Of a stretch of 64,000 nt of DNA, positions 301-35,142 are shown piece by piece (the stretch's first letter is position 1; every line of letters begins with the position of its first letter). The position numbers and the translations under genes are program-made. Origin of the DNA: Candidatus Nanoarchaeia archaeon (lineage in GTDB: Archaea; Nanobdellota; Nanobdellia; SCGC-AAA011-G17; GW2011-AR17); contig JAQTVM010000001.1 of the NCBI GenBank assembly GCA_028706745.1, positions 12,399-76,398 of the forward strand, read 5' to 3'. Below the pieces are notes generated by a model. The model was not told the DNA's origin. It searched no databases and saw only the letters and a list, made by a program, of their open reading frames with translations.

Positions 301-582
301 TTACTGCAAAACCCCAAAAGCCATGTAGTGCTTAATTGCAGGTATAGCCTCAAACCATTTGTCCTTGTTTTCATCGTGCCCCAAAAGCAAATGCGCAATG
401 TTGTTGTTTGCAGCAGCTTCGGGATATTTTCTTAGTATGTCTGAATACTGGTTTACTCTCAGCGCCTCGACATATTCAAAATAGAACTGCCTTATGTCGG
501 CAACAGTATTAAGTTTGTCCACTGCTGTCACCAGCACATTTTCTTTAGGATTTTCCCGCCTTAGTTTGTCCAATAAGCTCAT
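301..582 (-). CDS. hypothetical protein
   Basis: 93-aa ORF, no recognisable motif. Confidence 0.25.
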   Translation of the reverse strand: MSLLDKLRRENPKENVLVTAVDKLNTVADIRQFYFEYVEALRVNQYSDILRKYPEAAANNNIAHLLLGHDENKDKWFEAIPAIKHYMAFGVLQ

Positions 583-648: not shown

Positions 649-1551
649 TTAGAAAATAAAAGCAAGCACAAAAAAAAGCACATAAACCAAAGGCACCACT
701 CCAAGCATGCTGAACTCTGTCAGCCTGTGCATTCTCATCAGCTTTGCCTCCTGCTTTCTCTCGTGCAGCTCAAGCATTATAACATTGAGGATGAATGTAA
801 CAAGCAGTATGAAATAAGTCAATACCATAAACTTGTCTGCAAGAGTTAAATACCCTACAGGCGGAATCTGGTTTGAGATTGCTATGTGAAACATGACAGC
901 TGCAACCAGGCTTGAGCCCGCCATTCCCAATCTTGTTGTAATCTTGTCAGGGTCAAGCACAAAGCTGAACATGGTAACCATCATGATAAAGAACACAGGC
1001 AGGAATGTCTTCAGGAATGAGTTAAACACTATCCTTGAAATGTCAACATTGAATACATACTGCGAATATGTCTCATCATAGGGCTTGTAGTAATGCTCTG
1101 CAACGCTTGCTTCCCACCTGTCAATGTTCCAGCCTGTGAATGCAATGCTCTCATCAATTCCGCTTTCTTTCCCAATAGGAACATAAGCCAACTTGTCTAT
1201 TGTATTTTCCTTGTCCTCAAGTATAATCTGCATCTTCTGGCTGTCAAAAGGGAATGATTTCAAGTCAACAGGGCTGTTCAATGCAGCCTGTATCCTGTAG
1301 AACTTCTCGTTTGGCTCATCAATAATCCTGTCAACAGATGTGGCCCTTCCATTAACAAACTCAAAGTCAGAGCATTCATTATCACATTTCATTGAAAGAT
1401 AAAAGTCAGCTGTAAATGAGCCTGTGGAGATGTCAAACTTTCCAAGATTAAGTATGTACAAACCTACATCCACATTCTGCGCAGATGCCATTGGAGATGC
1501 TATTGAAAGCAGCATAACCAAAGCAAATGCAATCATTAAAATCTTCTTCAT
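649..1551 (-). CDS. pentameric ligand-gated ion channel (Cys-loop / GLIC-ELIC family) homolog
   Basis: Signal peptide (MKKILMIAFALVMLLSIASPMASA). The ~190-aa beta-rich ectodomain has FDISTGSFTADFYLSMKCD, resembling the beta1-beta2 region of pLGICs. Pre-M1 YYKPY...ISR is followed by four TM helices (M1-M4) with a short M3-M4 loop, as in prokaryotic pLGICs. Confidence 0.55.
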   Translation of the reverse strand: MKKILMIAFALVMLLSIASPMASAQNVDVGLYILNLGKFDISTGSFTADFYLSMKCDNECSDFEFVNGRATSVDRIIDEPNEKFYRIQAALNSPVDLKSFPFDSQKMQIILEDKENTIDKLAYVPIGKESGIDESIAFTGWNIDRWEASVAEHYYKPYDETYSQYVFNVDISRIVFNSFLKTFLPVFFIMMVTMFSFVLDPDKITTRLGMAGSSLVAAVMFHIAISNQIPPVGYLTLADKFMVLTYFILLVTFILNVIMLELHERKQEAKLMRMHRLTEFSMLGVVPLVYVLFFVLAFIF

Positions 1552-1663
1552 ATTGGAAGAATAATAAATGAGGTGTTTTATAAAGATTGCGGAATAATCT
1601 GAAAGCGGAAAACGGCTTTCCCGACGTAAGATTTAAATAAGCCCATAACTCTTATCCTCTATA

Positions 1664-4303
1664 ATGGACTTCAAGGCAATACAGGACAAGTGGCAGAAGC
1701 GCTGGGAAGAGAAGAAGATATTCAAAGTGAAAGAGAATTCAAAGAAAAAGAAGTTCTATGTCCTTGAGATGTTCCCTTACCCCTCTGCATCATACCTGCA
1801 CATGGGGCACGTAAGGAACTACACAATGGGCGACGTGGTCGCAAGATTCAAGCGAATGCAGGGCTTTAATGTTCTTTATCCCATGGGATATGACTCATTC
1901 GGACTGCCTGCAGAGAATGCAGCGAAAAAAGCAGGAATTCATCCAAAAGAATACACTGAAAACGCAATAACAAACATAATGGCTTACCAGAAAGCTTTGG
2001 GGAACAGTTATGACTGGGACAGGGTATTGGCAACGCACCGCCCTGAATACTACAAATGGAACCAGTATTTCTTCATCAAATTGTTTGAAAAAGGACTTGC
2101 ATACAGGGGGGAAGCGCCTGTCAATTTCTGCGATTCCTGCAACACAGTATTGGCGAATGAGGAAGTCGAGGCAGGCAAATGCTGGCGCTGCGGCACAGAA
2201 GTCACGACAAAATCCCTTAGCCAGTGGTTTTTGAAGACAACAGCATATACAGAGGAATTGCTGAATGACATTGACAAGCTTGACTGGTCTGACAAGATAA
2301 AGGAAATACAGAGGAACTGGATTGGCAAAAGCCACGGAACAATAATTAATTTCACAATTGACGGCAAAGTATGGCCTGTATTCACCACACGCTCCGACAC
2401 TGTTTTTGGCGTCACATTCATGGTAATATCAGCGCAGCATCCAAAGCTTAAAGAGCTTGTGAAAGGAACAAAAGAAGAAACAAGTGTTATGGCTTTCTCA
2501 GAAAAATGCAAAAAAGCAAGGTCAAGGGAAGAAATTGAAGAATTGGGGAAAGAAGGCGCCTTTACAGGCAAATATGCAGTCAATCCAATAACAAATGATA
2601 AAATACCTGTCTGGGCAGGAAACTTTGTTCTTGCAGAATACGGAAGCGGAATGGTAATGGCTGTCCCGACTCACGACCAAAGGGACTTTGAGTTTGCAAA
2701 GAAATACAGCCTGCCTTTGAAAGTTGTAATCCAGCCTAAGAATAAACAATTAAAAGAAAGTGAAATGTCAGAAGCATACACAGAAGAAGGTATTCTTGTC
2801 AATTCAGGGCAATTCAATAATATTGAAAATAAAACCGCAATTGAAAAAATAACAGATTACATTGAAAGCAAAAATCTTGGAAAAAGAACAGTCAATTACA
2901 AGATAAGGGACTGGCTAATCTCAAGGCAGAGATACTGGGGCACGCCAATACCAATGATTTACTGCGAAAAGTGCGGCATAGTGCCTGTGCCTGAGAAAGA
3001 GCTTCCACTCTTGCTGCCTGAAGATGTCTCGTTTACTGAAAAAGGCAATCCAATGCTTACAAGCAAAAAGTTCCAGAATGTTAAATGCCCGAAATGCGGG
3101 GCAAAGGCAAGAAGGGAAACAGACACAATGGGAGGATTTATGGACAGCAGCTGGTACTTCATGAGATACTGCTCTCCAAAGGAAAAGAAAACAGCTTTCA
3201 GCAAGGAATCAGTAGATTACTGGATGCCTGTTGACCAATATATCGGAGGCATAGAGCACGCTGTCGGGCATTTGATATACTCAAGATTTTTCACAAAGGC
3301 ATTAAGGGATATGGGGCTTTTGAAATGCGATGAGCCGTTCAATGCATTATTCAACCAAGGGATTGTTTACAGAGACGGCAAGAAAATGTCAAAGAGCGCA
3401 GGCAATGCAGTAATGCAGGATGAAATTGTAAAAGATTACGGCATTGACACTGCAAGATTGTTCCTGATGTTTGTAGCATCCCCTGAAAAGGAAATGGAGT
3501 GGAGCTCTGCAGGCATTGAAGGCAGTTTCAGGATTGTGCACAAGCTGATTTCATTGTTTGAGGATAAACCAAAAGGCAATGGGACAAAGGACAAGTTGAT
3601 AATCAGCAAAATGCACCGCACAATAAAGGAAGTGACTGCAGGTATTGAGGGGTTCAGGTTTAATAACTCGATTATTGCATTGATGGAATATGTGAATTAT
3701 TTGCATAGGGAGAAAGAAAATATATCTGAGAAAGTATGGAACAAGGCTTTGGAAACAGTGTGCGTATTGGCTTCTCCTTTCATGCCGCACATATGCGAGG
3801 AATGCTGGGAAAAGCTTGGCAACAAGCCGTTTGTATCTTTGGAAAAATGGCCTTCCTTTGACGAGAAGAAGATTGATTTGAAAGCTGAAGCAATTGAGCA
3901 GATTGCAGATAATGTTGCATCTGACATAAGAAAAGTCCTTGAGCTTGCAAAGATAGAGAAGCCTGCGAAAATCACTTTGTTTACAGCAAACAAATGGAAG
4001 TATGAGCTTGTAGAACAAGTGAAGAAATTAAACACAAGGAATGCAGGCGAGATAATAAAGTCAGTGATGCAAACATCCTTGAAACAGCACGGTCAGGATG
4101 TTATGAAAATTGTTCCTAAATTGGCAGAGAAGCTGCCTGAATTCGTGTTTGAGAAGAAAGAAGAGGAAAAAGCACTGAAAGATTCTGCTGCAGCGCTTGA
4201 AAAAGAGTTCAATTGCAAGATAGAAATTGTAGATGCAGAGAAAAGCACTCAGCAAAAGGCAAAACAGGCAATGCCGGCGAAGCCGGCGATACTGGCTGAG
4301 TAA
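1664..4303 (+). CDS. leuS: leucyl-tRNA synthetase (archaeal type)
   Basis: 879 aa; HMGH (class I HIGH) and KMSKS motifs; CP1 editing-domain features; overall LeuRS architecture. Confidence 0.9.
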
Positions 4304-15276: not shown

Positions 15277-16179
15277 TTACTCGTAGTGTATATTATTCTT
15301 CGTGGTGATTGTCTCTTCAATCTTATCGGCAAATCCTTTTCCTATGCTGTACCCGAAATGCGAGAACATTCTTCCGAAAAATGACGGGTTCTGCACCATC
15401 AGTGTGCCGACATAAGTGTTCTTGAAGTTCCCTCTTTTTTCGCAGGATTTTATTGCTGTCCTCAATGTGCCTGTCCTGTCAACAAGCCCCATTTTTGCTG
15501 CGTCAATACCGTCCCATACATAGCCGTTTGCATATCCTTCAAGCTGGCTCTTTGTCATCCTGTCGCCTGCCTTCTCTTGCCTGCTTTCATAAACAAGATT
15601 GACAAATCTCTCGTGGTGCCTCTTTACAAGGTATTCAAGGTGCTGCCTTTCCTCTGGTCTTAATTCCCTGAACATTGACATGAAGTCCTTTTCTTCCTTT
15701 GATTTTATTACCTCAAGCTTAACTCCAATTTTTTCCATCAGCTCCTTGACAACAAACTTGTTCATTATTACGCCGATGCTTCCGATTAATGCGTCTTCCG
15801 CAACAATTATCTCGTCGCAGCCGCACGCAGTCATGTAAGCGCCTGAAGCGCAAAGACTGTTCACGTAAGCCACCTTCGGCTTTTTCACTTTTCTTACCAA
15901 GTCATAAATTGTCTTGCTTGCTCCTGCCTCTCCTCCGCCTGAGCTTATGTCAAGAATAATTCCCTTTACCCTGTTATTTTCCTCCAAGCCCTTGAGAATC
16001 TTCTCAAGCCCCTGGGGTGTTGTGGGACCGGGCGCATAGTCCTTAGGTCCTGCATTCCCTATCTGCCCGTTGAAAGGCACTCTTATAATCTGGCTGTCTC
16101 CCTTCTTGTACTCGTCTATTTTCCTTTTTATCATGGGGTATCCTATCAGCCCCAGAAACAAAAGACTTATGTAATCCAT
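15277..16179 (-). CDS. sppA: signal peptide peptidase SppA (S49, ClpP/crotonase fold), 36K type
   Basis: ILDISSGGG oxyanion region and SLCASGAYMTACGCDEI catalytic-Ser region typical of SppA. Confidence 0.75.
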   Translation of the reverse strand: MDYISLLFLGLIGYPMIKRKIDEYKKGDSQIIRVPFNGQIGNAGPKDYAPGPTTPQGLEKILKGLEENNRVKGIILDISSGGGEAGASKTIYDLVRKVKKPKVAYVNSLCASGAYMTACGCDEIIVAEDALIGSIGVIMNKFVVKELMEKIGVKLEVIKSKEEKDFMSMFRELRPEERQHLEYLVKRHHERFVNLVYESRQEKAGDRMTKSQLEGYANGYVWDGIDAAKMGLVDRTGTLRTAIKSCEKRGNFKNTYVGTLMVQNPSFFGRMFSHFGYSIGKGFADKIEETITTKNNIHYE

Positions 16180-16373
16180 GTTGAATCGACCTCCGTTAAG
16201 GCTGATTATTCTCTGTCTATTTATATAAGTTGCGGGAAAAATCTCTTTTTTGCCTTTGATTAGCCACTATGCAATGCTATTTCCAACTGGGCCAAAAAGA
16301 AGGAGGTAAGGGGCTTTGCCCCTAACACCCCTTGTTTTCAGGAGAGTCAGCAGTTTTTAAGAAAAGTTTAAAT

Positions 16374-16416
16374 ACTTATTTAGTCCTTATTTAGTCCATA
16401 AATAGTCCTTATTTAA
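16374..16416. promoter_or_regulatory. direct repeats TAGTCCTTATTTA (x2) plus TAGTCCATAAA upstream of the RHH gene; candidate operator
   Basis: seen directly; immediately 5' of the RHH ORF at 16423. Confidence 0.4.
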
Positions 16417-16422
16417 TACAAA

Positions 16423-16572
16423 ATGGCGGAAATAAGATTTGGCATAACGGCGAAATTGGACGGGCTCCTTAAGGATATAGCCGGCAAGTACGGAGTTGAT
16501 AAGTCTGAATATGTAAAGAGCCTTATAATCTCTGACTTGAGAACTAAGGAAGCAAGACCAAAAGACAAGTAA
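16423..16572 (+). CDS. ribbon-helix-helix (CopG/Arc-like) DNA-binding protein, 49 aa
   Basis: Not in the ORF track (<60 aa). Translation MAEIRFGITAKLDGLLKDIAGKYGVDKSEYVKSLIISDLRTKEARPKDK has the beta-strand plus two-helix RHH pattern; sits upstream of the R-M genes. Confidence 0.45.
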   Translation: MAEIRFGITAKLDGLLKDIAGKYGVDKSEYVKSLIISDLRTKEARPKDK

Positions 16573-16750
16573 ATGGCAAGTGGTAAACGGTCATAAAATG
16601 AGAACAAAAAATAAGGCTTGCGAGGGAAGCAGGCGGAAGATTTGCGGAAAGTCCGAAGGACTTTCGGTTAAGGCGGAGAATCCGAACCAGTTGCCACTCG
16701 CCACCCGCACGGACAGGGCTTATAAACATCTAAAGTAAAGGAGAAAAGAA

Positions 16751-18748
16751 ATGATAAGAAAAAATGAATCACAGAAAGACATACTTTTGTTTAATTATTT
16801 GAAAGATAAACGTTCTTTTCAAGAAAAATGGAATACTAAAAAAACAACAAATAAGTTTATTCAACCAGTTCTTGATACTTCAAGTAAGAAAAAGAATGGG
16901 CAAAGAGGAGAACCTGATTTTGTATATGTAAACGAAAAAAGGAAAATATTAATATTAATAGAAAATAAAGATGATATTAATCAACATAAATCTAAAAATG
17001 AAGATAATCCTATAACTTATTCTGTAGACGGTATAAAACATTATTTAAGTTGTTTTAAGAAGGATTATCTAGAAAATTTTAATATTACAATTAAAAAATA
17101 TTTAAATGATTGGAAAATTGTTGGGATTGCTGTATCTGGAAATATTGAGGATGAATATAACCATTTAATCTCTACTTATACTCTCCAAGAAGATGAAGTA
17201 AAAGATATAGAAACAGAAGAAATACTTAATGAAGAGGATTACCTCTCTTTATTTGAGAATATCAATTTAGAAAAAATAACAAGAGATATATCCTTATCAT
17301 CAAATAAGATTAATAATCTTTTACGTTCTTTAGATTCACAAAAGAGACCCATTCTCCTTAGTGCTTTAATGATATGTTTATTTGAACCCAAAAATATTCA
17401 AAATGATTTCAAAAATAACTATTCTAATTGGACAGCAAACACAATTATAACGAATATTCCACTAATAATAAAAACGATTTTAGGAAATGAGGGGATACCC
17501 TCGGAAAAGATTGAAGTATTAAATAATGAACTGACATTTATTAAAACAGATTTAGAACTTAAAAATACAGATATATTGAAGGATATACTCAATGAGCTCG
17601 AGAATAATGTTATCCCACAATTTAATAAAAGCCATAATTATGATATTATTGGGAAGTTTTATGAAGATTTTTTGAGATATGCAGGAGTAACAAATGTAAA
17701 AAAAGGGATTATTTTAACACCTGCCCACATTACTAAATTATTTACAGAATTAATTGATGTTAAAACAAATGATGTTATTATTGATACTTGTTGTGGGACA
17801 GGGGCATTTCTTATTTCAGCGATGAATAAAATAATTGAGGAAATAACAGATTCAAGTATTAAAAATAAAAAAGATTTAATTGATAAAGTTAAACATAAAC
17901 AGTTAATTGGTATCGAAAAGAATACGACCATGTATACTCTCGCAATCTCTAATATGCTATTTAGGGGGGATGGTAAATCCAATATTTACCATTTAGATTC
18001 TTTTTCAAAAGAAGCAGATAAGATTTTATTAAATCTTAAAAAGAGGGGAATTATTCCAACAATCGGCTTTATCAATCCGCCTTATGGCGGTAGAGATAAT
18101 AAAGAAAATCCTACTAAAAAAGAAATTCAATTTTTAGAAAGATTATTGGATAATGTTAGCCGATACGGTATAATCATTGCACCATTGTCTACTTATTTTA
18201 AAGAAGAGATTATTAGAAGTAGAATATTATCCAAGCACACTTTGAAATATGTGATAAATATGCCAAAAGAATTATTTCAACCAAATGCATCTACACATAC
18301 AGCTATTGCAGTATTTAAAACAAATTTACCCCATAATAATAAAGAAGTTATATTTTATAATCTTCAAGATGACGGATTAGTTTTATCAAAAAATAGGGGC
18401 AGAACAGATGCATTAAATAAGTGGGCAAAAATAAAAAAGGAATTATTAACAAAATTGAATAATCCTAAAAAATATGCTGATGGAATAAATCTCGTTATAA
18501 CAAAAATCAGTAATGGGGATGAATGGATATTACAAGCTCATGCAAAAACAGATTATACTAAGATTAATGAAAGAGCATTTATTAATAGTATAAAGCAATA
18601 TATTATCTTTTCAACGAAGAGAAAACTAGGTCTATTAGACAGAGATATTGATGAAATAACCTTATTGGAGATACTTAATGAAAATAAGATAAATGCCAAT
18701 GCTTTACTAAGAGATGTTAAAATTAAAGAAAAAAATGAAAAGATATAA
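16751..18748 (+). CDS. fused restriction-modification enzyme (N-terminal PD-(D/E)xK nuclease plus gamma-class N6-adenine DNA methyltransferase), BcgI-A-like / Type IIB-IIG
   Basis: N-terminal EPDFVYV...ILILIENK (PD...ExK); MTase motif I VIIDTCCGTGAFL and motif IV FINPPYG (NPPY). Confidence 0.75.
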   Translation: MIRKNESQKDILLFNYLKDKRSFQEKWNTKKTTNKFIQPVLDTSSKKKNGQRGEPDFVYVNEKRKILILIENKDDINQHKSKNEDNPITYSVDGIKHYLSCFKKDYLENFNITIKKYLNDWKIVGIAVSGNIEDEYNHLISTYTLQEDEVKDIETEEILNEEDYLSLFENINLEKITRDISLSSNKINNLLRSLDSQKRPILLSALMICLFEPKNIQNDFKNNYSNWTANTIITNIPLIIKTILGNEGIPSEKIEVLNNELTFIKTDLELKNTDILKDILNELENNVIPQFNKSHNYDIIGKFYEDFLRYAGVTNVKKGIILTPAHITKLFTELIDVKTNDVIIDTCCGTGAFLISAMNKIIEEITDSSIKNKKDLIDKVKHKQLIGIEKNTTMYTLAISNMLFRGDGKSNIYHLDSFSKEADKILLNLKKRGIIPTIGFINPPYGGRDNKENPTKKEIQFLERLLDNVSRYGIIIAPLSTYFKEEIIRSRILSKHTLKYVINMPKELFQPNASTHTAIAVFKTNLPHNNKEVIFYNLQDDGLVLSKNRGRTDALNKWAKIKKELLTKLNNPKKYADGINLVITKISNGDEWILQAHAKTDYTKINERAFINSIKQYIIFSTKRKLGLLDRDIDEITLLEILNENKINANALLRDVKIKEKNEKI

Positions 18749-19745
18749 ACTAAATCTAAAAAATTGGAAATATTTTAATTTTAATGATATATTTTCATTT
18801 GAGAGGGGAAAAAGGCTTGTTGAATTAGACCAAATAGGGGGAGATATACCTTATATTGCATCTTCCAAAAAAAATAATGGTATAACAAATACAATTAATC
18901 CTCCTGAATTTATGAAATTATATCGGAATGTTTTAACTCTAAATAATAGCGGGAGTGTAGGATATTGTTTTTATCAAGAATCAGATATAGTATGTTCAGA
19001 CCATGTAACTGTAATATGGATTAAAGATGAAAATGTTAAACTAAATCCATATACTGCTTTATATCTAAAACCTATAATAGAATCAATGCAATATAAATTT
19101 AATTTTGCTAGAGAAATAAGTGATGCTAGGTTAAATAAAGAAAAGATATTACTTCCAACTGACAAAAATGGTAATCCTGACTGGTATTTTATGGAAAATT
19201 ACATAAAGCATATTTCTAAGAGAATAAAATATGATAAGGTAATAAATTTAAGAATAGCGAAGAAATTAGATACCCAGAAATGGAAATGGTTCGATATAGG
19301 AAGTTTATTTGAAATTAAAAAAGGAGAACGATTAATTGAAGAAGAACGAATTAGGGGTGAAATCCCTTTGATTACTGCCTCATCTGAAAATAATGGCGTT
19401 GTTGATTTAATATCCTACCCACATTTTAATAAAGAAAAAAAATGTTTTGAAAATAAGATAACAATTGATATGTTCTTCAATGTATTCTACCATAATTATA
19501 AATATTTTAGTGATGATAATGTTCATACTTTAATACCACTTTTTGAAAAAGTAAATACTTATATTTCATTATTTTTAGTAGCAGTTCTTAAAGAATTACA
19601 ATTTAAATATGCTTATGGTCGACAATTAAGAATAAAAAGATTAGAATTAGAAAAAATTAAGCTTCCCATAGATAAAAGAGGTAAACCTAATTGGGTATAT
19701 ATGGAGGATTATATTAAATCCTTGCCTTATAGCTCAAATCTTTAG
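18735..19745 (+). CDS. specificity (S) subunit with two target-recognition domains (HsdS/BcgI-B-like)
   Basis: Two internal repeats: WKYFNFNDIFSFERGKRL...PYIASSKKNNG and WKWFDIGSLFEIKKGERL...PLITASSENNG. ATG at 18735 overlaps the stop of the upstream gene by 14 nt. Confidence 0.75.
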   Translation: MKRYKLNLKNWKYFNFNDIFSFERGKRLVELDQIGGDIPYIASSKKNNGITNTINPPEFMKLYRNVLTLNNSGSVGYCFYQESDIVCSDHVTVIWIKDENVKLNPYTALYLKPIIESMQYKFNFAREISDARLNKEKILLPTDKNGNPDWYFMENYIKHISKRIKYDKVINLRIAKKLDTQKWKWFDIGSLFEIKKGERLIEEERIRGEIPLITASSENNGVVDLISYPHFNKEKKCFENKITIDMFFNVFYHNYKYFSDDNVHTLIPLFEKVNTYISLFLVAVLKELQFKYAYGRQLRIKRLELEKIKLPIDKRGKPNWVYMEDYIKSLPYSSNL

Positions 19746-19753
19746 GTATATAT

Positions 19754-20029
19754 TTAAGCATTCTTATCTAATTTATTCTTCCCCACTTTCCTGCCAGTTT
19801 TTATATTCCACTTTGCCATACATTCTTCAATAGTATACCACATATAGCATCCCCTATCGCCCTTAAATGCCCTGTATAAGAGTCCAAACAAAAACCATTT
19901 GGTTACTCTCTTTTGCTTTGAGAAAAAAGCCCTGAAAGCATATATAAACGCTATCGGACTCCAAATAATGTGCCTATAGAACCTTTTCCAGAAAGGGGGC
20001 TTAGGGTTTTGCGGTTTTGATGGATTCAT
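19754..20029 (-). CDS. hypothetical small protein
   Basis: 91-aa ORF, basic/hydrophobic, no family recognised. Confidence 0.2.
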   Translation of the reverse strand: MNPSKPQNPKPPFWKRFYRHIIWSPIAFIYAFRAFFSKQKRVTKWFLFGLLYRAFKGDRGCYMWYTIEECMAKWNIKTGRKVGKNKLDKNA

Positions 20030-20732: not shown

Positions 20733-23597
20733 ATGGCAGAAAAAACAAGGGAAAAAAGATTGCAGGTAGTCGAGGCGCAGCAGGATGATGCGTTCAAGGG
20801 AATTGTAAGGATAGATTCTGAGATGCTCAAGGACATTGAATTAAGACCGGGAGACATAGTTGAAATAGAGGGCGCAAGAAAAACAGTCGCCATTGCAGAC
20901 AGGGCATACCCTACTGACATAGGCAGGGAAGTCGTAAGAATGGACGGCATAATGAGGAGAAATGCCAAGACAGCAATCGGCGAGAATGTCACAATAAGAA
21001 AGGCGGAAATAAAAGAGGCAAAGGAGATTATTATTGCTCCTGCTGAAAAAGGCATGATGATACAGGGAGAGCCGGACGTATTTTTGAAAGGATTGCTTGG
21101 CAGGCCGCTGCTGAAGGGGGATATTGTTGTCTTGGGCGGAGCAAGAACAAGGAGAAGGACAATGAGCAGCTCTCCTTTCGAGGAGATATTCCGCGGATTC
21201 GGGCTTGACATGGGGCATTTCGGCTTCAGCAACATAAGATTTGTCATTGTTGACACAAATCCAAAAACAGCAATCATAATCACAGAAGACACAAAAGTGC
21301 ATGTAAGACCTCAGCTGGAAGACAAGGATTTGTCAGAAGAAAAGGTTGCAGGCATAACCTATGAAGACATAGGCGGGCTTGATGATGAGCTGAAAAAAGT
21401 AAGGGAAATGGTTGAGCTTCCGTTGAAGCACCCTGAATTGTTTGAACGGCTTGGTGTGCAGCCTCCGAAGGGAGTCTTATTGCACGGTCCTCCGGGAACA
21501 GGAAAAACACTTTTGGCAAAGGCAGTCGCGACAGAGGCAGATGCCAAGTTTTATTCAATCAACGGGCCTGAAATAACTTCCAAGTTTGTGGGAGAGGCTG
21601 AAAAAAACATCAGGACAATATTTGAAGATGCTGAAAAAAATGCGCCTTCAATTATTTTTATTGACGAGATAGACGCAATCGCTTCAAAAAGGGAAGAAAC
21701 ATACGGCGATGTTGAGAAAAGAATTGTTGCGCAGCTTCTCGCCACAATGGACGGGCTTAAATCAAGGGGAAAAGTAATTGTTATGGCTGCGACAAACAGG
21801 CCAAATGCAATTGACCCTGCATTGAGAAGGCCGGGAAGGTTTGACAGGGAAATAGAAATAGGAGTTCCGTCAAAAGAAGGAAGATTAAGCGTTCTGAAGA
21901 TACACACAAGAAACATGCCGCTGAAATACTGGGACGACTCTGTTGCGTGCAATGTCCTGATGAAAAGGCTGAGCTCATTTGAAGAGGATGCCAAGGCAAG
22001 GATTAGCCAGAAAAAAAGTTCTGCAAGCCAGCTTAATGCCGAGCTGAAAGAAAAAAGCAAGGCGCTTGAAGAAAGCGCGGCTGAATTGAGAAAAATGGAG
22101 CAGCAGAAAAAAGACAGCCCTGACTCTTTCCTTACAGACATAATGGCAAGGATAAATTTCAAGCAGGGCAAGATTGCCGACTTGAAAAAGCAGATAGACA
22201 AGATTAAGTCTGAAATTGAAAGCATTCCGAAAGAGATTAAAAAAATCGAAGAAGATTTGATTGTGGACAAAGAGCTGCTGAAAGAGATAGAGAAAGACAA
22301 AAGCATCCTTCTCGAGCTTGAATCAAAGCTAAAGGAGATTATACACACAAAAGAGATTCGCTCTTTTGAAGACGCAAGGGATTTGTTCCTGAACAAGGAC
22401 TTGAAAGAATCACAGACAAAGATTAAGTCTGTCATTGAAAAGTTCATGAAATCAGGCATACTGTCAGGAGAGTTTGTGGGAGAGATATACAAGGAATCGT
22501 CTGTTATCCTGTTGAAAGGGCTTGCCCAAAAAACATACGGGTTTGTGGGAGCTGACCTTGAAGCATTATGCAAGGAAGCTGCAATGAATGTGGTGAGAAG
22601 AGTACTGCCTAATGTAAACTTCAAGGAAGACGTTCCGATAAAGCCGGAGATTTTGGAAAAATTGGTTATTACTCAGGAAGACTTTGATTCTGCAATGAAA
22701 AACGTCAGCCCTTCCGCATTAAGGGAAGTGTTTGTCGACATACCAAATATCAAATGGGGCGACATCGGCGGATTGAATGATTTGAAGCAGGAACTGAAAG
22801 AGGCAATTGAATGGCCCTTGAAATTCCCTGACTCATTCAAGAGAATGGGGGTTCGCCCGCCGAGAGGGGTAATGATGTACGGTCCGCCCGGCTGCGGAAA
22901 GACATTGCTTGCAAAAGCGGCTGCAAACGAGTCAGAGGCAAACTTCATTTTGGTAAAGGGGCCCGAGCTGATTTCAAAGTGGGTTGGAGAAAGCGAAAAG
23001 GGAATCAGGGAAATCTTCAAGAAGGCAAGGCAGAGCAGTCCCACAATAATCTTCTTTGACGAGATTGACTCAATTGCTCCGAGAAGGGGAAATGAGGCAG
23101 GCACGCACGTCACTGAAAGAATGGTTAACCAGCTTTTGACTGAGATGGACGGGCTTGAGACGCTGAATGACGTGATTGTGATTGCAGCGACAAACAGACC
23201 GGACATTATTGACCCCGGTTTGCTTAGGCAGGGAAGGTTTGACAGGATTATACTTGTCCCGCCGCCTGACACAAAAGCAAGGGAGGAGATTTTCAGGATA
23301 CACACAAAGAACATGCCTCTTGCAAAAGACGTGAAGATAGATAAGCTTGTTGAAAAAACAAACAATTATGTCGGCTCTGACATTGAAGGCATCTGCAGGG
23401 AAGCCGCCACAATTGCATTGAGGGAAAGCATTGACGCAAAGGATGTGAAGCTGAAGCATTTCGAAGAGGCGGTAAAGAAAGTGAAGAGCTCAATCCTGAA
23501 TGAAGAAATACAGAAGTACAGGGAAATTGAGAACAGCTACATACGAAATGCAAGAAGCATATCTGCCGGAGAAAAGGACAAGAGCTACTTCGGCTGA
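20733..23597 (+). CDS. cdc48: Cdc48/VCP-like AAA+ ATPase with ~180-aa coiled-coil insertion in the D1 helical subdomain
   Basis: N domain present. D1 Walker [12 protein letters not shown]; D2 Walker [11 protein letters not shown]; both second-region-of-homology motifs present. 954 aa versus ~740 aa typical. A K/E-rich heptad-like segment lies between IHTRNMPL and [11 protein letters not shown] (about nt 21920-22475). Confidence 0.85.
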
Positions 23598-31573: not shown

Positions 31574-32041
31574 ATGAAATGCCCGTATTGCGGCTGCAAG
31601 GAAACAAAAGTCACTGACAGCAGGGAAAGCAACGAAGAGCCTGTCACCAGAAGAAGGAGGGAATGCCCTAAATGCAAAAAACGATTCACGACATACGAGC
31701 GCCTTGAAACATCAAATGTCATTGTCGTAAAAAAAGACGGCAGGAGAGAGCAGTTTGACAGGGAAAAGCTCAGGAGAGGCTTGTTAAGGGCGTGCGAAAA
31801 AAGGCCCATCTCATCAGACAAAATAGATTCAGTAATCAGCGATATGGAATCAGACATAACTTCCTCGGGAAAAACAGAGGTTGCAAGCAGATTGCTGGGT
31901 GAAAAAGTAATGTCTGCGCTGAAAAAGCTGGACAAGGTGGCATACATCAGGTTTGCTTCTGTCTACAGGGAATTCACAGACCTTGAAACATTCCAGGAAG
32001 AGCTAAAGACGCTTCTCAAGAAGCAGAGGGGGAAAAGATGA
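31574..32041 (+). CDS. nrdR: transcriptional repressor NrdR (Zn ribbon plus ATP-cone)
   Basis: CPYCGC...CPKC; near-identity to the bacterial NrdR signature (KVAYIRFASVYREF). Confidence 0.85.
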   Translation: MKCPYCGCKETKVTDSRESNEEPVTRRRRECPKCKKRFTTYERLETSNVIVVKKDGRREQFDREKLRRGLLRACEKRPISSDKIDSVISDMESDITSSGKTEVASRLLGEKVMSALKKLDKVAYIRFASVYREFTDLETFQEELKTLLKKQRGKR

Positions 32042-35000
32042 TAACCCGGATTAAAAAAAGAGACGGAAGCATTGTTTTTTTTAACAAGGCAAAGATAAGC
32101 GATGCAATATTCAAGGCGGCAAAGTCAGTAGGGGGAAAAGACAGAAGAAGGGCTGAACATCTTGCCTTAATGTCTGTTGAGCTTCTTGAGCAAAGGGGCT
32201 TTTGCGAAGAAAAGATGCCCAATGTCGAGGATGTGCAGGATGCTGTTGAAAAAACGCTCATAGAAGAGGGGCATGCGCAGACAGCAAAAGCATACATAAT
32301 CTACAGGGAGCAGCACAAGAGAATAAGGGAATTCCATTCCTATGTAAACTCAAACGAAATAATGGACGGCTACCTTAACCAGCTTGACTGGAGGGTAAAG
32401 GAAAACAGCAATATGAGCTTCTCGCTCCAGGGATTAAACAACCATATATCATCCATAGTAAGCTCAAACTACTGGCTTCACAAGATTTACCCGCCTGAAG
32501 TGAGGGAAGCGCACATTGAAGGAGACATACATCTTCACGATTTGCAGATACTCGGCTCCTATTGCTGCGGCTGGGACATAATGGACTTGATGATAAAAGG
32601 ATTTGGCGGAGTTCCTGAAAAAGTCGAGAGCATGCCTGCAAGGCACTACAGGGCAATGCTCGGGCAGATAACAAACTTTTTCTACACTCTTCAGGGGGAA
32701 ACAGCAGGTGCGCAGGCATTTTCAAATTTTAATACAATGCTGGCGCCTTTTGTGAAGTATGACCATCTTGAATACAAGGAAGTAAAGCAGGGAATGCAGG
32801 AATTCTTATTTAACATGAATGTGCCGACAAGAGTAGGTTTTCAATGCCTTTCAGCAGACACAGAAATACTTACGCCCACAGGATGGAAAGGATATGGAGA
32901 TATTAACAAAGGCGAGATCATAGAAACATTTAATCTAAGAACAGGAATAATCGAGCATCAAAAAGTTGCCTCTTTTTTTAGAAAGGAATATACGGGCAAG
33001 ATGTACCGCCTGCAAAATCGCATCCAGGACCAGCTTATTTCTCCAAATCACAGAGTTGTAAGAAAAAAATTTCAGACAGGAGAGAATGTTTTGGAGCCTA
33101 TCGAGGAAATTTTGAAGCTCAAGTCTCCTTTTATTATTCCAATTGCCGGAAAAAATAGCAAGCCGGAAGCAAAAATAGAAGACAAGCAGATAAAATTGAT
33201 GGCATGGATTATAAGCGAAGGCACTATTGAAAGGCCAACAAAGTACAGATGCTGTTACAGGGTGAGTATATACCAGTCAAAGATTAAAAATAAAACCAAT
33301 TACAAAGAAATAAAATCACTTTTGCACTATTTTAAACTTGAATTTTCAGAATATGAAGTCGCCTCTTTGGGAGAGAGCGTAACAAGAATGAGGCTGAACG
33401 CAGAAAGCTCAAAAAAAATACATAAATGGTTTGGAAGCAGGGAAAATATCCATTTTATTCCTGATTATTTATTGAATTTAAGCGAAAGGCAATCGCGCTT
33501 GTTTTTGGATACATACATTAAAGGCGAAGGCTTTGAAGGCTGCAAAATATCTGTTTCCGACATAGCCTTGCTAGACAGGCTGCAGATTATCATTGTCAAT
33601 TCAGGATTTGGCTCGAGCATATTAAAACGAAAGCCGACAATCGGCAAGAAAGATATTTTTGTATTAAGGATTATAAGACATAAAGATACGTATATTTCAA
33701 AAGTAAGCCAAGTAAATTACAAAGGAATTATATGGTGCCCGCATACCAAAAATGAGACAGTAATTGCCAGAAGAAGAGGAAAAGTGTTTATTACAGGCAA
33801 TACGCCTTTTACAAATTTAACTCTGGATATTGAAGTGCCTGAAAATCTGAGAAACAGCCACGCAATAATCGGCGGAAAGCCCATGCCCGAAGTGTACGGC
33901 GATTTCCAGAAAGAGGCTGACATGGTAAACAGGGCTTTCCTGGAAGTTATGTCAGAGGGGGATGCAAAAGGGAGGATATTCACATTCCCAATACCTACTT
34001 ATAACATAACAAAAAACATTGATTGGGAAAACCCTGCCCATGACACATTATTTGAAGTTACGTCAAAATTCGGGCTGCCTTATTTTGCAAACTTTGTAAA
34101 CTCAGAGATGAGCCCTGACGATGCAAGAAGCATGTGCTGCAGGCTTAGGCTTGACAACAGGGAATTAAGAAAAAGAAGCGGCGGATTATTTGCTTCAGCC
34201 CCATTGACAGGAAGCATAGGCGTTGTAACACTTAACATGCCTAGGATAGCGTTTGCAGCAAAAGATGAAACAAAATTTGCAGAGCGCGTGGTTGAGCTTA
34301 TGAGAATAGCAAAAACAAGCCTTGACATAAAAAGAAAGGCGGTTGAAAGATTCACGGAGCAGGGGCTTTATCCCTATGCAAAAAAATACCTCGGCGGGGT
34401 AAAACAGGCAACAGGGCAATATTGGGGAAATCATTTCAACACAATAGGGCTTATAGGAATGAACGAGGCGTGCCTTAATATTCTTGGAGAGAACATTGCT
34501 TCAAACAAGGGCAGGAATTTTGCGCTCAGGATTCTTGACGTAATGCGCGAAGAGCTAAGGCAATACCAGGAAAGCACAAACGACAATTATAACCTCGAAG
34601 CAACCCCTGGAGAAGGATGCAGCTACAGGTTTGCAAAGATGGACAGGGAAAGGTTTCCGCAAATAAAAACAGCAGGAGAGCAAGTGCCTTATTACACAAA
34701 CAGCACCCACCTCCCGGTAGGATATACAGACGACATATTTGAAGCGCTTGACCTGCAGGATGAACTTCAGTGCAAGTACACAGGCGGAACAGTGCTTCAC
34801 GGGTTTGTCGGAGAAAGAATATCAGACCCGGAAACATGCAAGAAACTCGTTAAAAAAATAGCCAGTAATTATAAGCTGCCTTACTTTACAATAACCCCGA
34901 CATTCAGCGTATGCCCTGAGCACGGTTATATTGCAGGCGAGCATTCACAATGCAAGAAAGAGACAGCAGAAGGGGCATGCGGAAAGCAGTGCGAAGTTTT

Positions 35001-35142
35001 TTCAAGGGTAGTCGGCTATTACAGACCTGTCCAAAGCTGGAATAATGGGAAAAGAGAGGAGTTCAGGCAGAGAAAAGCTTACTGCGAAAAGAAAAGCATT
35101 GAAAGCATGGAAAAAAAACAGGGATTCAGGTTTGCGATGTAA
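32038..35142 (+). CDS. nrdD: anaerobic ribonucleoside-triphosphate reductase NrdD, intein-containing
   Basis: ATP-cone at N-terminus. The GFQ/TPFTN active-site region is interrupted by a 319-aa insertion. C-terminal Zn ribbon and glycyl-radical motif RVVGYY are present. Extein about 715 aa. Confidence 0.85.
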   Translation: MITRIKKRDGSIVFFNKAKISDAIFKAAKSVGGKDRRRAEHLALMSVELLEQRGFCEEKMPNVEDVQDAVEKTLIEEGHAQTAKAYIIYREQHKRIREFHSYVNSNEIMDGYLNQLDWRVKENSNMSFSLQGLNNHISSIVSSNYWLHKIYPPEVREAHIEGDIHLHDLQILGSYCCGWDIMDLMIKGFGGVPEKVESMPARHYRAMLGQITNFFYTLQGETAGAQAFSNFNTMLAPFVKYDHLEYKEVKQGMQEFLFNMNVPTRVGFQCLSADTEILTPTGWKGYGDINKGEIIETFNLRTGIIEHQKVASFFRKEYTGKMYRLQNRIQDQLISPNHRVVRKKFQTGENVLEPIEEILKLKSPFIIPIAGKNSKPEAKIEDKQIKLMAWIISEGTIERPTKYRCCYRVSIYQSKIKNKTNYKEIKSLLHYFKLEFSEYEVASLGESVTRMRLNAESSKKIHKWFGSRENIHFIPDYLLNLSERQSRLFLDTYIKGEGFEGCKISVSDIALLDRLQIIIVNSGFGSSILKRKPTIGKKDIFVLRIIRHKDTYISKVSQVNYKGIIWCPHTKNETVIARRRGKVFITGNTPFTNLTLDIEVPENLRNSHAIIGGKPMPEVYGDFQKEADMVNRAFLEVMSEGDAKGRIFTFPIPTYNITKNIDWENPAHDTLFEVTSKFGLPYFANFVNSEMSPDDARSMCCRLRLDNRELRKRSGGLFASAPLTGSIGVVTLNMPRIAFAAKDETKFAERVVELMRIAKTSLDIKRKAVERFTEQGLYPYAKKYLGGVKQATGQYWGNHFNTIGLIGMNEACLNILGENIASNKGRNFALRILDVMREELRQYQESTNDNYNLEATPGEGCSYRFAKMDRERFPQIKTAGEQVPYYTNSTHLPVGYTDDIFEALDLQDELQCKYTGGTVLHGFVGERISDPETCKKLVKKIASNYKLPYFTITPTFSVCPEHGYIAGEHSQCKKETAEGACGKQCEVFSRVVGYYRPVQSWNNGKREEFRQRKAYCEKKSIESMEKKQGFRFAM
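32845..33801 (+). mobile_element. intein (Cys1 ... terminal Asn, +1 Thr) with degenerate LAGLIDADG-like homing-endonuclease region
   Basis: Starts CLSADTEIL (block A) right after GFQ and ends ...VFITGN followed by TPFTNLT; internal LMAWIISEGT and FLDTYIKGEGF blocks. Confidence 0.7.

Follow-up and report, generated by a model that had tools for sequence, protein, structure and literature searches.

A compact, Cys-less pentameric ligand-gated ion channel subunit conserved among DPANN archaea

Introduction

[quoted passage not shown] This gene very probably specifies the subunit of a homopentameric, Cys-less pLGIC (a Pro-loop receptor) from a clade with a compact ectodomain that is under strong purifying selection across the DPANN archaea. 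A pLGIC homologue had been proposed at this position in an earlier note, made from the sequence alone, and is examined here by profile searches, comparison with solved structures, structure prediction and analysis of related loci.

Homology and fold

The homology proposed in the earlier note is borne out by sequence, profile, signature-residue and fold comparisons. In a phmmer search against the PDB, residues 82-300 matched best a chimera of GLIC and GABA-A alpha1 (E 1.2e-16), followed by dozens of entries at E ~1e-15 for GLIC itself, the proton-gated pLGIC of Gloeobacter violaceus (PDB 3EAM). A profile built from 42 diverse members of the clade (A2) matched GLIC at E 4e-40, its positions 32-310 being aligned with GLIC residues 12-314. 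The two Pfam families against which the earlier note had suggested a hidden Markov model search were both recovered in the correct order, though under their gathering scores: Neur_chan_LBD over residues 85-173 (E 2.4e-4, 21.0 bits against 26.0) and Neur_chan_memb over residues 183-275 (E 2.4e-5, 25.2 bits against 28.1). Similarly, the NCBIfam models TIGR00860 (LIC; E 1.8e-17, 63.3 bits) and NF033918 (LGIC_1; E 2.1e-14, 53.6 bits) scored below their cut-offs of 280.2 and 500. These low scores are an effect of divergence, which explains why the named relatives are all called "hypothetical protein", and they are outweighed by the profile and fold evidence.

The seven most conserved positions of the superfamily have been tabulated, with an [F/Y]PxD motif whose proline is absolutely conserved (Jaiteh et al., 2016, Table 1; PMC4795631). 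All seven are present in the protein (F100, P101, D103, W141, R173, P185 and P230), as is the 0' arginine of the second transmembrane helix (M2), R207; R173, W141, P185 and P230 are aligned with GLIC R192, W160, P204 and P247. To assess the frequency of these residues, a profile of the family was run against 1.84 billion cluster representatives (50% identity); it matched 283 clusters at E <= 1e-30 and 7,234 at E <= 1e-3, and 130 of the best 150 representatives could be scored. In these 130 sequences, the Pro-loop proline is universal and the aspartate is found in 122, the residue preceding the first transmembrane helix (M1) is arginine in 106 and lysine in 19, and the β9 tryptophan, the M1 proline and the M2-M3 proline occur in 122, 124 and 129, respectively.

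An AlphaFold2 single-chain model was computed from an alignment of 36 family members (A1), with a mean predicted local distance difference test score (pLDDT) of 88.8 and a predicted template modelling score (pTM) of 0.73. It shows an extracellular β-sandwich followed by a four-helix bundle (M1-M4), and Foldseek retrieved GLIC with it at E 6e-21 and TM-scores of 0.81-0.82. GLIC and sTeLIC are the nearest solved relatives by sequence and by fold. The earlier note would have been contradicted by the lack of any profile match together with an unrelated fold; neither was observed, the model having the fold expected for a pLGIC subunit. The protein is not a Cys-loop receptor of the eukaryotic type, which has a disulfide flanking the β6-β7 loop: no cysteine flanks that loop within residues 93-110, and C56 and C60 are the only cysteines in the protein. 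Collectively, these data establish membership of the pLGIC superfamily.

Domain layout of the subunit

The gene and the elements of its product are listed below, all of them on the minus strand of the window.

649..1551, minus strand: entire coding region for the compact pLGIC subunit (300 aa), with the stop codon at 649-651
1577..1584, minus strand: TATA-box-like element TTTATAAA, 26-33 nt 5' of the ATG, from direct reading of the sequence
1480..1551, minus strand: signal peptide MKKILMIAFALVMLLSIASPMASA, residues 1-24, predicted cleavage after ASA
1033..1479, minus strand: compact extracellular domain, residues 25-173 (AlphaFold2 model and MAFFT alignment to GLIC)
1372..1386, minus strand: CxxxC pair C56/C60 at the apical end of β2, invariant in 36/36 family members
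1243..1254, minus strand: Pro-loop (β6-β7), F100-P101-F102-D103, invariant and without flanking cysteines, equivalent to GLIC Y119-P120-F121-D122
1066..1095, minus strand: hairpin of loop C, residues H153-Y162 (HYYKPYDETY), which is predicted to close the orthosteric pocket as a lid, with H153, Y155, Y158 and Y162 invariant
958..1029, minus strand: M1 helix, residues 175-198, with kink proline P185 and with the pre-M1 arginine R173 just upstream (AlphaFold2 model and alignments)
874..951, minus strand: M2, the pore helix, residues 201-226, numbered by HMMER alignment with GLIC and with the GLIC-GABA-A alpha1 chimera
844..873, minus strand: M2-M3 coupling loop, NQIPPVGYLT, with signature P230 (proline in 129/130 representatives)
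760..843, minus strand: M3 helix, residues 237-264 (AlphaFold2 model)
655..750, minus strand: M4 helix, residues 268-299, a turn of ~3 residues away from M3, with no cytoplasmic domain (AlphaFold2 model)

The N-terminus, MKKILMIAFALVMLLSIASPMASA followed by QN, reads as a Sec signal peptide with its n-region, h-region and AxA site, in agreement with the earlier note. In the model, a helix at residues 2-16 is followed by low pLDDT at residues 19-21, and in the 36-member alignment the N-terminal region is variable and the mature part, of ~276 residues, conserved. The membrane part was also correctly foreseen: four transmembrane helices are modelled, the linker between M3 and M4 is as short as had been claimed, and M2 is rich in small and polar residues (Gly/Ala/Ser-rich RLGMAGSSLVAAVMFHIAIS).

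A compact ectodomain

The ectodomain is shorter than the ~190 residues given by the earlier note, since the mature part upstream of M1 comprises ~149 aa (residues 25-173). It is modelled with eight strands (25-36, 45-56, 68-79, 82-92, 104-112, 121-125, 141-155 and 160-173) instead of the canonical ten. Compared with GLIC, MAFFT and HMMER alignments reveal the absence of residues ~50-71, a segment of ~22 residues between β2 and loop A which covers the β2-β3 loop, β3 and the loop-A W72-x-P74 motif, as well as of two 3-residue stretches and of the 14-residue N-terminal lead-in. The shortfall amounts to ~43 residues, ~28 of which lie between β2 and the Pro-loop. Accordingly, the loop-D position on β2 and the Pro-loop proline are 50 residues apart (Y51 to P101), against 78 in GLIC (F42 to P120) and 81 in the nicotinic acetylcholine receptor alpha7, while the distance from the Pro-loop to the pre-M1 arginine (P101 to R173) is 72, as in GLIC. 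The GLIC sequence in the MAFFT alignment agrees with the HMMER output for residues 15-58 and 101-314. A GLIC spacing of 24 derived with hmmalign was discarded, the N-terminal half of GLIC having fallen outside the match states, in favour of the values from pairwise alignment with MAFFT and HMMER.

The missing segment is replaced by C56-x-x-x-C60, with C60-S61 in place of W-x-P, followed by an invariant F-E-F-x-N-G-R stretch (36-member alignment). Of the "β1-β2/Cys-loop region" described by the earlier note, the Pro-loop FPFD at 100-103 is thus present, but the Cys-loop cysteines are not, the only pair being located directly after β2. This pair, which may form a disulfide staple or a metal site, is invariant in the 36 family members and in all named DPANN members, and is found in ~60% of the 130 clade representatives. 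In the latter, the β2-to-Pro-loop spacing is 49-57 residues (mode 52), and the Pro-loop-to-pre-M1 spacing is 72-73 in most. Judged from these sequences, the compact design is a property of the whole clade and not the oddity of one gene.

Candidate ligand pocket and coupling elements

In GLIC, R77, R105, E181, R133 and E177 have been assigned to the orthotopic pocket and its entrance, and R85, Y102 and E104 to a vestibular pocket (PMC10859675). The aligned residues of the archaeal subunit are as follows; in loop C, the two numberings differ by a constant offset of 19.

GLIC R77, orthotopic: E64
GLIC R105, orthotopic: R86
GLIC E181, orthotopic: Y162
GLIC R133, orthotopic entrance: K114
GLIC E177, orthotopic entrance: Y158
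GLIC R85, vestibular: R69
GLIC Y102, vestibular: K83
GLIC E104, vestibular: Y85

E64, R69, R86, K114, Y158 and Y162, along with H153, Y155, E112 and D113, are unchanged in 17/17 named DPANN members, down to 48% identity. In the 36-member alignment, Y85 is invariant and K83 nearly so. E64, R86, Y155 and Y162 are also widely retained in the broader clade. Together with the conserved pore lining and the histidine at position 15' of M2, these invariant pocket positions argue for one conserved ligand. A pocket in which tyrosines and a histidine form an aromatic box around one acidic and one basic residue would be expected for a small amine/carboxylate compound, which suggests an amino acid or a γ-aminobutyric acid (GABA)-like metabolite, for example, as the ligand. 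A role as a chemoreceptor, for which the earlier note had put the protein forward as a candidate, is plausible and in keeping with the invariance of these residues.

The elements which couple the ectodomain to the pore are equally conserved, as the 36 members share N35, G37 and D40 in the β1-β2 loop, the FPFD motif, R173, and Q228-x-P230...Y234 in the M2-M3 loop. Over this alignment, the mean column identity is 65% and 57 positions are invariant.

Pore, selectivity and gating

With R207 as 0', the predicted pore lining consists of T205 (-2'), G209 (2'), S213 (6'), V216 (9'), M220 (13'), I223 (16') and N227 (20'), with T206 at -1' and H222 at 15'. S213, M220 and H222, the last not facing the pore, are invariant, and the 15' histidine is near-universal in the compact clade. 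T205 and T206 occupy the -2' and -1' positions, so the acidic ring of cation-selective pLGICs is absent. The M1-M2 loop is aligned without gaps to that of GABA-A alpha1 (LDPDKITTR in the query, LNRESVPAR in the receptor), against a 2-residue gap with GLIC. Taken together, the missing acidic ring and the loop length favour a pore that would be anion-permeable or weakly selective. Confidence in this prediction is low because two aspartates beneath the pore, D200 and D202, are invariant and because a Ca-ATPase gene is an occasional neighbour. In the wider clade, the -2'/-1' pair varies between PAR-like (e.g. in P0248), GE(K/R)-like and other motifs, and selectivity therefore probably differs between subfamilies.

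The most serious alternative to an organic ligand is gating by protons or an inorganic ion, the conserved ectodomain residues then serving as titratable or ion-binding sensors. GLIC is gated at acid pH, sTeLIC at alkaline pH, and DeCLIC is modulated by Ca2+. That GLIC and sTeLIC are the nearest solved relatives speaks for such gating, as do the invariant titratable residues H153, H222, E64, E112 and D113. In addition, the near-universal 15' histidine is located one helical turn above GLIC H235 (11'), which we take to be critical for gating. However, the subunit has G44 at the position of GLIC E35, presumably the main proton sensor of that channel, and A218 at the position of its 11' histidine, and a pocket of invariant tyrosines with one acidic and one basic residue would be more typical of an organic-ligand site. 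Gating by protons or ions is thus possible but on balance unlikely, and a channel opened by a small organic molecule is preferred.

Distribution and origin

In a first search, 533 clusters at 90% identity were retrieved, the best 120 of which share 61-100% identity with the query at lengths of 288-328 aa; the names displayed in this search all belong to metagenome-assembled genomes (MAGs) of Woesearchaeota or Nanoarchaeia. When a single genome for each GTDB species was scanned, with short peptide patterns and hence as a lower bound, at least 111 species-representative genomes proved to contain relatives, and all of these except one have an archaeal label. The labels, which are those of the MAG depositors, comprise Woese-, Pace-, Nano- and Aenigmatarchaeota, some "uncultured Methanosarcinales" and one "Alphaproteobacteria", and a profile of distant members adds Micrarchaeota, Diapherotrites and Norongarragalinales. 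Identity to the query is 87-91% in the closest Nanoarchaeia, 62-73% in Woesearchaeota, 59-62% in Pacearchaeota and 48-51% in Micrarchaeota, Diapherotrites and Norongarragalinales.

Two of the labels call for caution. The member binned as "Alphaproteobacteria bacterium" (L025, 5193-6104; 61% identity) is located on a 7.5-kb contig of GC 0.336 with nothing proteobacterial-looking on it, and this contig is probably mis-binned. Several of the carriers labelled "uncultured Methanosarcinales archaeon" are doubtful as well. In one Pacearchaeota MAG (JZ-2_201901_bins_146), two contigs (L028 and L071) bear one member each, at 62% and 63% identity, so that some genomes appear to hold two paralogues.

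The earlier note had considered the gene sporadic and likely acquired horizontally. The distribution of pLGICs in prokaryotes is patchy overall, and several from archaea cluster with those of bacteria (Jaiteh et al., 2016; PMC4795631). Outside the archaea, a protein of the myxobacterium Labilithrix luteola (P0348, on a 12.19-Mb contig) shows 34% identity (E 1.7e-49) with the same deletion and Cys pair. It belongs to a more distant group of bacterial and metagenomic compact pLGICs (P0264, ~94 clusters), which is almost entirely without precomputed Pfam matches and is invisible to standard domain annotation. Since this subfamily has the compact design, an ancient transfer between domains, in either direction, is possible. 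A recent acquisition, which would also fit the variable gene neighbourhood described below, is very unlikely. The gene has a GC content of 0.406 and a GC content at third codon positions (GC3) of 0.478, matching its flanking housekeeping genes and the window (0.409). Its nearest relatives, at 87-91% identity, come from Nanoarchaeia/Nanoarchaeota MAGs, and a leucyl-tRNA synthetase (LeuRS) gene adjoins the channel gene in three related loci, the closest (L001) included. Moreover, identity declines along DPANN taxonomy, the named entries in the top lists are all DPANN, and the one non-archaeal label among the at least 111 species genomes is the contig that looks mis-binned. Host-like composition, wide distribution and identity that tracks taxonomy leave a recent event unsupported, and the gene is a long-standing and widely retained DPANN gene.

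Two apparent tandem duplicates were rejected, each being a single gene split into two open reading frames (ORFs): L004, 3714-4625 (108+193 aa) and L077, 5989-6882 (106+156 aa), both from MAGs labelled Aenigmatarchaeota. These split genes are either pseudogenes or assembly errors; the GC content of L004 is unusually high (0.523). That the subunit is a degenerate, non-conducting relic, its short ectodomain a product of decay in a reduced genome, is hardly credible: ~43 canonical ectodomain residues including the loop-A W-x-P are gone and these two related loci hold interrupted copies, but the 65% mean column identity and 57 invariant positions of the 36 members, the invariant coupling and pore residues, a design stable over 130 representatives of 50%-identity clusters, a confident AlphaFold2 fold and 48-91% identity across phyla are unlike a relic.

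Gene neighbourhood

The four genes on either side of the channel gene were clustered in 80 related loci. A conserved operon partner was rejected, as the commonest neighbour occurs in 8/80 loci only, and the channel gene stands alone. In these 8 loci, a P2A-type (PMR1/SERCA-like, Ca-ATPase-like) pump is encoded near the channel gene, and in 5/80 (L023, L049, L054, L059 and L063) it lies directly upstream on the same strand, with a gap of just 9 nt in L049. This pairing could be a sub-lineage operon linked to cation homeostasis, or could reflect shared ancestry. A CPA2-like antiporter fragment is found in 4/80 loci, and the LeuRS neighbour is confined to the three loci mentioned above.

The locus and its host

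In the window, a single ORF of 300 aa with an ATG start occupies exactly 649..1551 on the minus strand. The spacing of 26-33 nt between the TATA-like element and the ATG suggests that the mRNA is leaderless or has a very short leader. The LeuRS gene (1664-4303) is oriented divergently from the channel gene. On the other side, 66 nt downstream and on the same strand, lies a 93-aa ORF (301-582, minus strand) with a GGAGG ribosome-binding site and no Pfam match. Because it is absent from 80/80 related loci, it was rejected as a partner of the channel gene, and it looks like a lineage-specific small gene. Another ORF of 300 aa (15277..16179, minus strand) was rejected as a paralogue, its translation resembling by eye an SppA-type signal-peptide peptidase, and tblastn found no second channel copy in the window.

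The archaeal genome context assumed by the earlier note is confirmed by the same contig, which carries PolD DP1/DP2, MCM, Cdc48, a family-B polymerase (PolB), FEN1, Trm5 and RlmE, together with several aminoacyl-tRNA synthetases and an anaerobic ribonucleotide reductase. The database entry for an identical protein (P0001) reads [quoted passage not shown]. The host thus belongs to the DPANN archaea and is probably anaerobic.

Elsewhere in the window, a low-GC island (16001-20000; GC 0.275-0.32 against ~0.41 elsewhere) encodes a type I restriction-modification pair, N6_Mtase/HsdM-like (16751-18748, plus strand) and Methylase_S/HsdS-like (18714-19745, plus strand), and is probably horizontally acquired defence DNA. 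NrdD (32038-35142, plus strand, 1034 aa) has split NRDD profile matches at ~residues 122-271 and 588-1015, and the ~315-aa insertion between them, without a Pfam family, may represent an intein that escaped recognition or some other insert. Similarly, a Cdc48-like AAA ATPase (20733-23597, plus strand, 954 aa) has ~200 residues without Pfam match between its D1 AAA domain (248-377) and its lid (~595-632). No tRNA gene was found in the 64 kb by ARAGORN, which split or intron-containing archaeal tRNAs could escape, and no Rfam match above gathering score was obtained in the window.

Discussion

A mechanism can be proposed for the favoured reading, a homopentameric Pro-loop receptor. After Sec export and cleavage of the signal peptide, five subunits would presumably assemble around an M2-lined pore. 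A small extracellular molecule would then bind at the subunit interface, in a pocket formed by H153, Y155, Y158 and Y162 of loop C, E64 of loop A, E112/D113/K114 of loop B and R86 of loop E. Binding would be relayed to M2 through the β1-β2 loop (N35-D40), FPFD, the pre-M1 arginine R173, a likely salt-bridge partner of the Pro-loop aspartate, and the M2-M3 loop (P230), and a hydrophobic gate at 9', 13' and 16' (V216, M220 and I223) would open. Speculatively, the channel could in this way sense a metabolite from the environment or from a host and respond with an ion flux or a change in membrane potential.

Several points weigh against this reading or parts of it. The pocket was assigned by sequence alignment to GLIC and not from coordinates, and the invariant H153 and H222 fit pH gating equally well. 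Regarding selectivity, the aspartates D200 and D202 could draw cations to the pore, and the P2A ATPase, the sole recurrent upstream neighbour, would also favour cations over anions. Within four genes on either side in the 80 loci, no conserved neighbour gives a functional clue. Finally, the Pfam and NCBIfam scores lie under the curated cut-offs, and standard pipelines leave the protein unnamed.

Among known systems, GLIC is the closest solved relative, with 19-22% identity. It possesses residues ~50-71, the 14-residue N-terminal lead-in, an 11' histidine and a -2' glutamate ring, which we assume to be its selectivity ring, all of which the archaeal subunit lacks. The latter has a glycine at the E35 position, a threonine in place of the -2' glutamate, a 15' histidine and an M1-M2 loop longer by 2 residues. 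With G44, A218 and T205 at the positions of E35, the 11' histidine and the -2' glutamate, the subunit is, on sequence grounds, not a GLIC orthologue. sTeLIC, ELIC and DeCLIC have full-length ectodomains, with modelled chains of at least 307 residues against 276 mature residues here, and DeCLIC has additional N-terminal domains (589 residues). Their stimuli, alkaline pH for sTeLIC, primary amines or GABA for ELIC and Ca2+ for DeCLIC, cannot be transferred to the archaeal subunit. The anionic Cys-loop receptors (GluCl, GABA-A, GlyR) are also among the closest systems, the M1-M2 loop having the length of that of GABA-A alpha1.

Archaeal pLGICs were previously known from Methanosarcina, other Euryarchaeota and Thaumarchaeota (Jaiteh et al., 2016; PMC4795631), and an earlier report, Tasneem et al. 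(2005), is cited in that work. They are archaeal and Cys-less like the present subunit, a likeness drawn from published inventories, and the inventory of PMC4795631 mentions neither a DPANN lineage nor a shortened ectodomain. In a literature search, with most subscription journals outside its reach, no description of DPANN ligand-gated ion channels was found. We therefore could not find an earlier description of this compact, unannotated pLGIC clade, which is strongly conserved in DPANN. It is conceivable, but doubtful, that the protein is the first example of a minimal pLGIC found DPANN-wide, with the smallest natural subunit design, and that in these episymbiotic archaea with reduced genomes it acts as a receptor for a metabolite supplied by the host or the community. 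If so, its retention at 48-91% identity with an unchanged pocket would place it at the core of chemical sensing between symbiont and host, and structural studies of gating would gain an attractive minimal scaffold in the subunit.

To our knowledge, no studied prokaryotic pLGIC has a known physiological role, and GLIC and ELIC stem from lineages in which the gene occurs sporadically. In the DPANN branch, kept in many reduced genomes with an unchanged putative pocket, the evolutionary signal of function is clearer, and the residues of interest form a defined set. Most members being "hypothetical" and many without a Pfam match, inventories of prokaryotic pLGICs probably undercount the family. The ectodomain tolerates the loss of ~28 residues between β2 and the Pro-loop, including W-x-P, which bears on the minimal needs of gating. 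While an archaeal pLGIC is in itself no surprise to specialists, one with a minimal ectodomain and an unchanged pocket that is broadly retained in reduced genomes provides a handle on the function of prokaryotic pLGICs.

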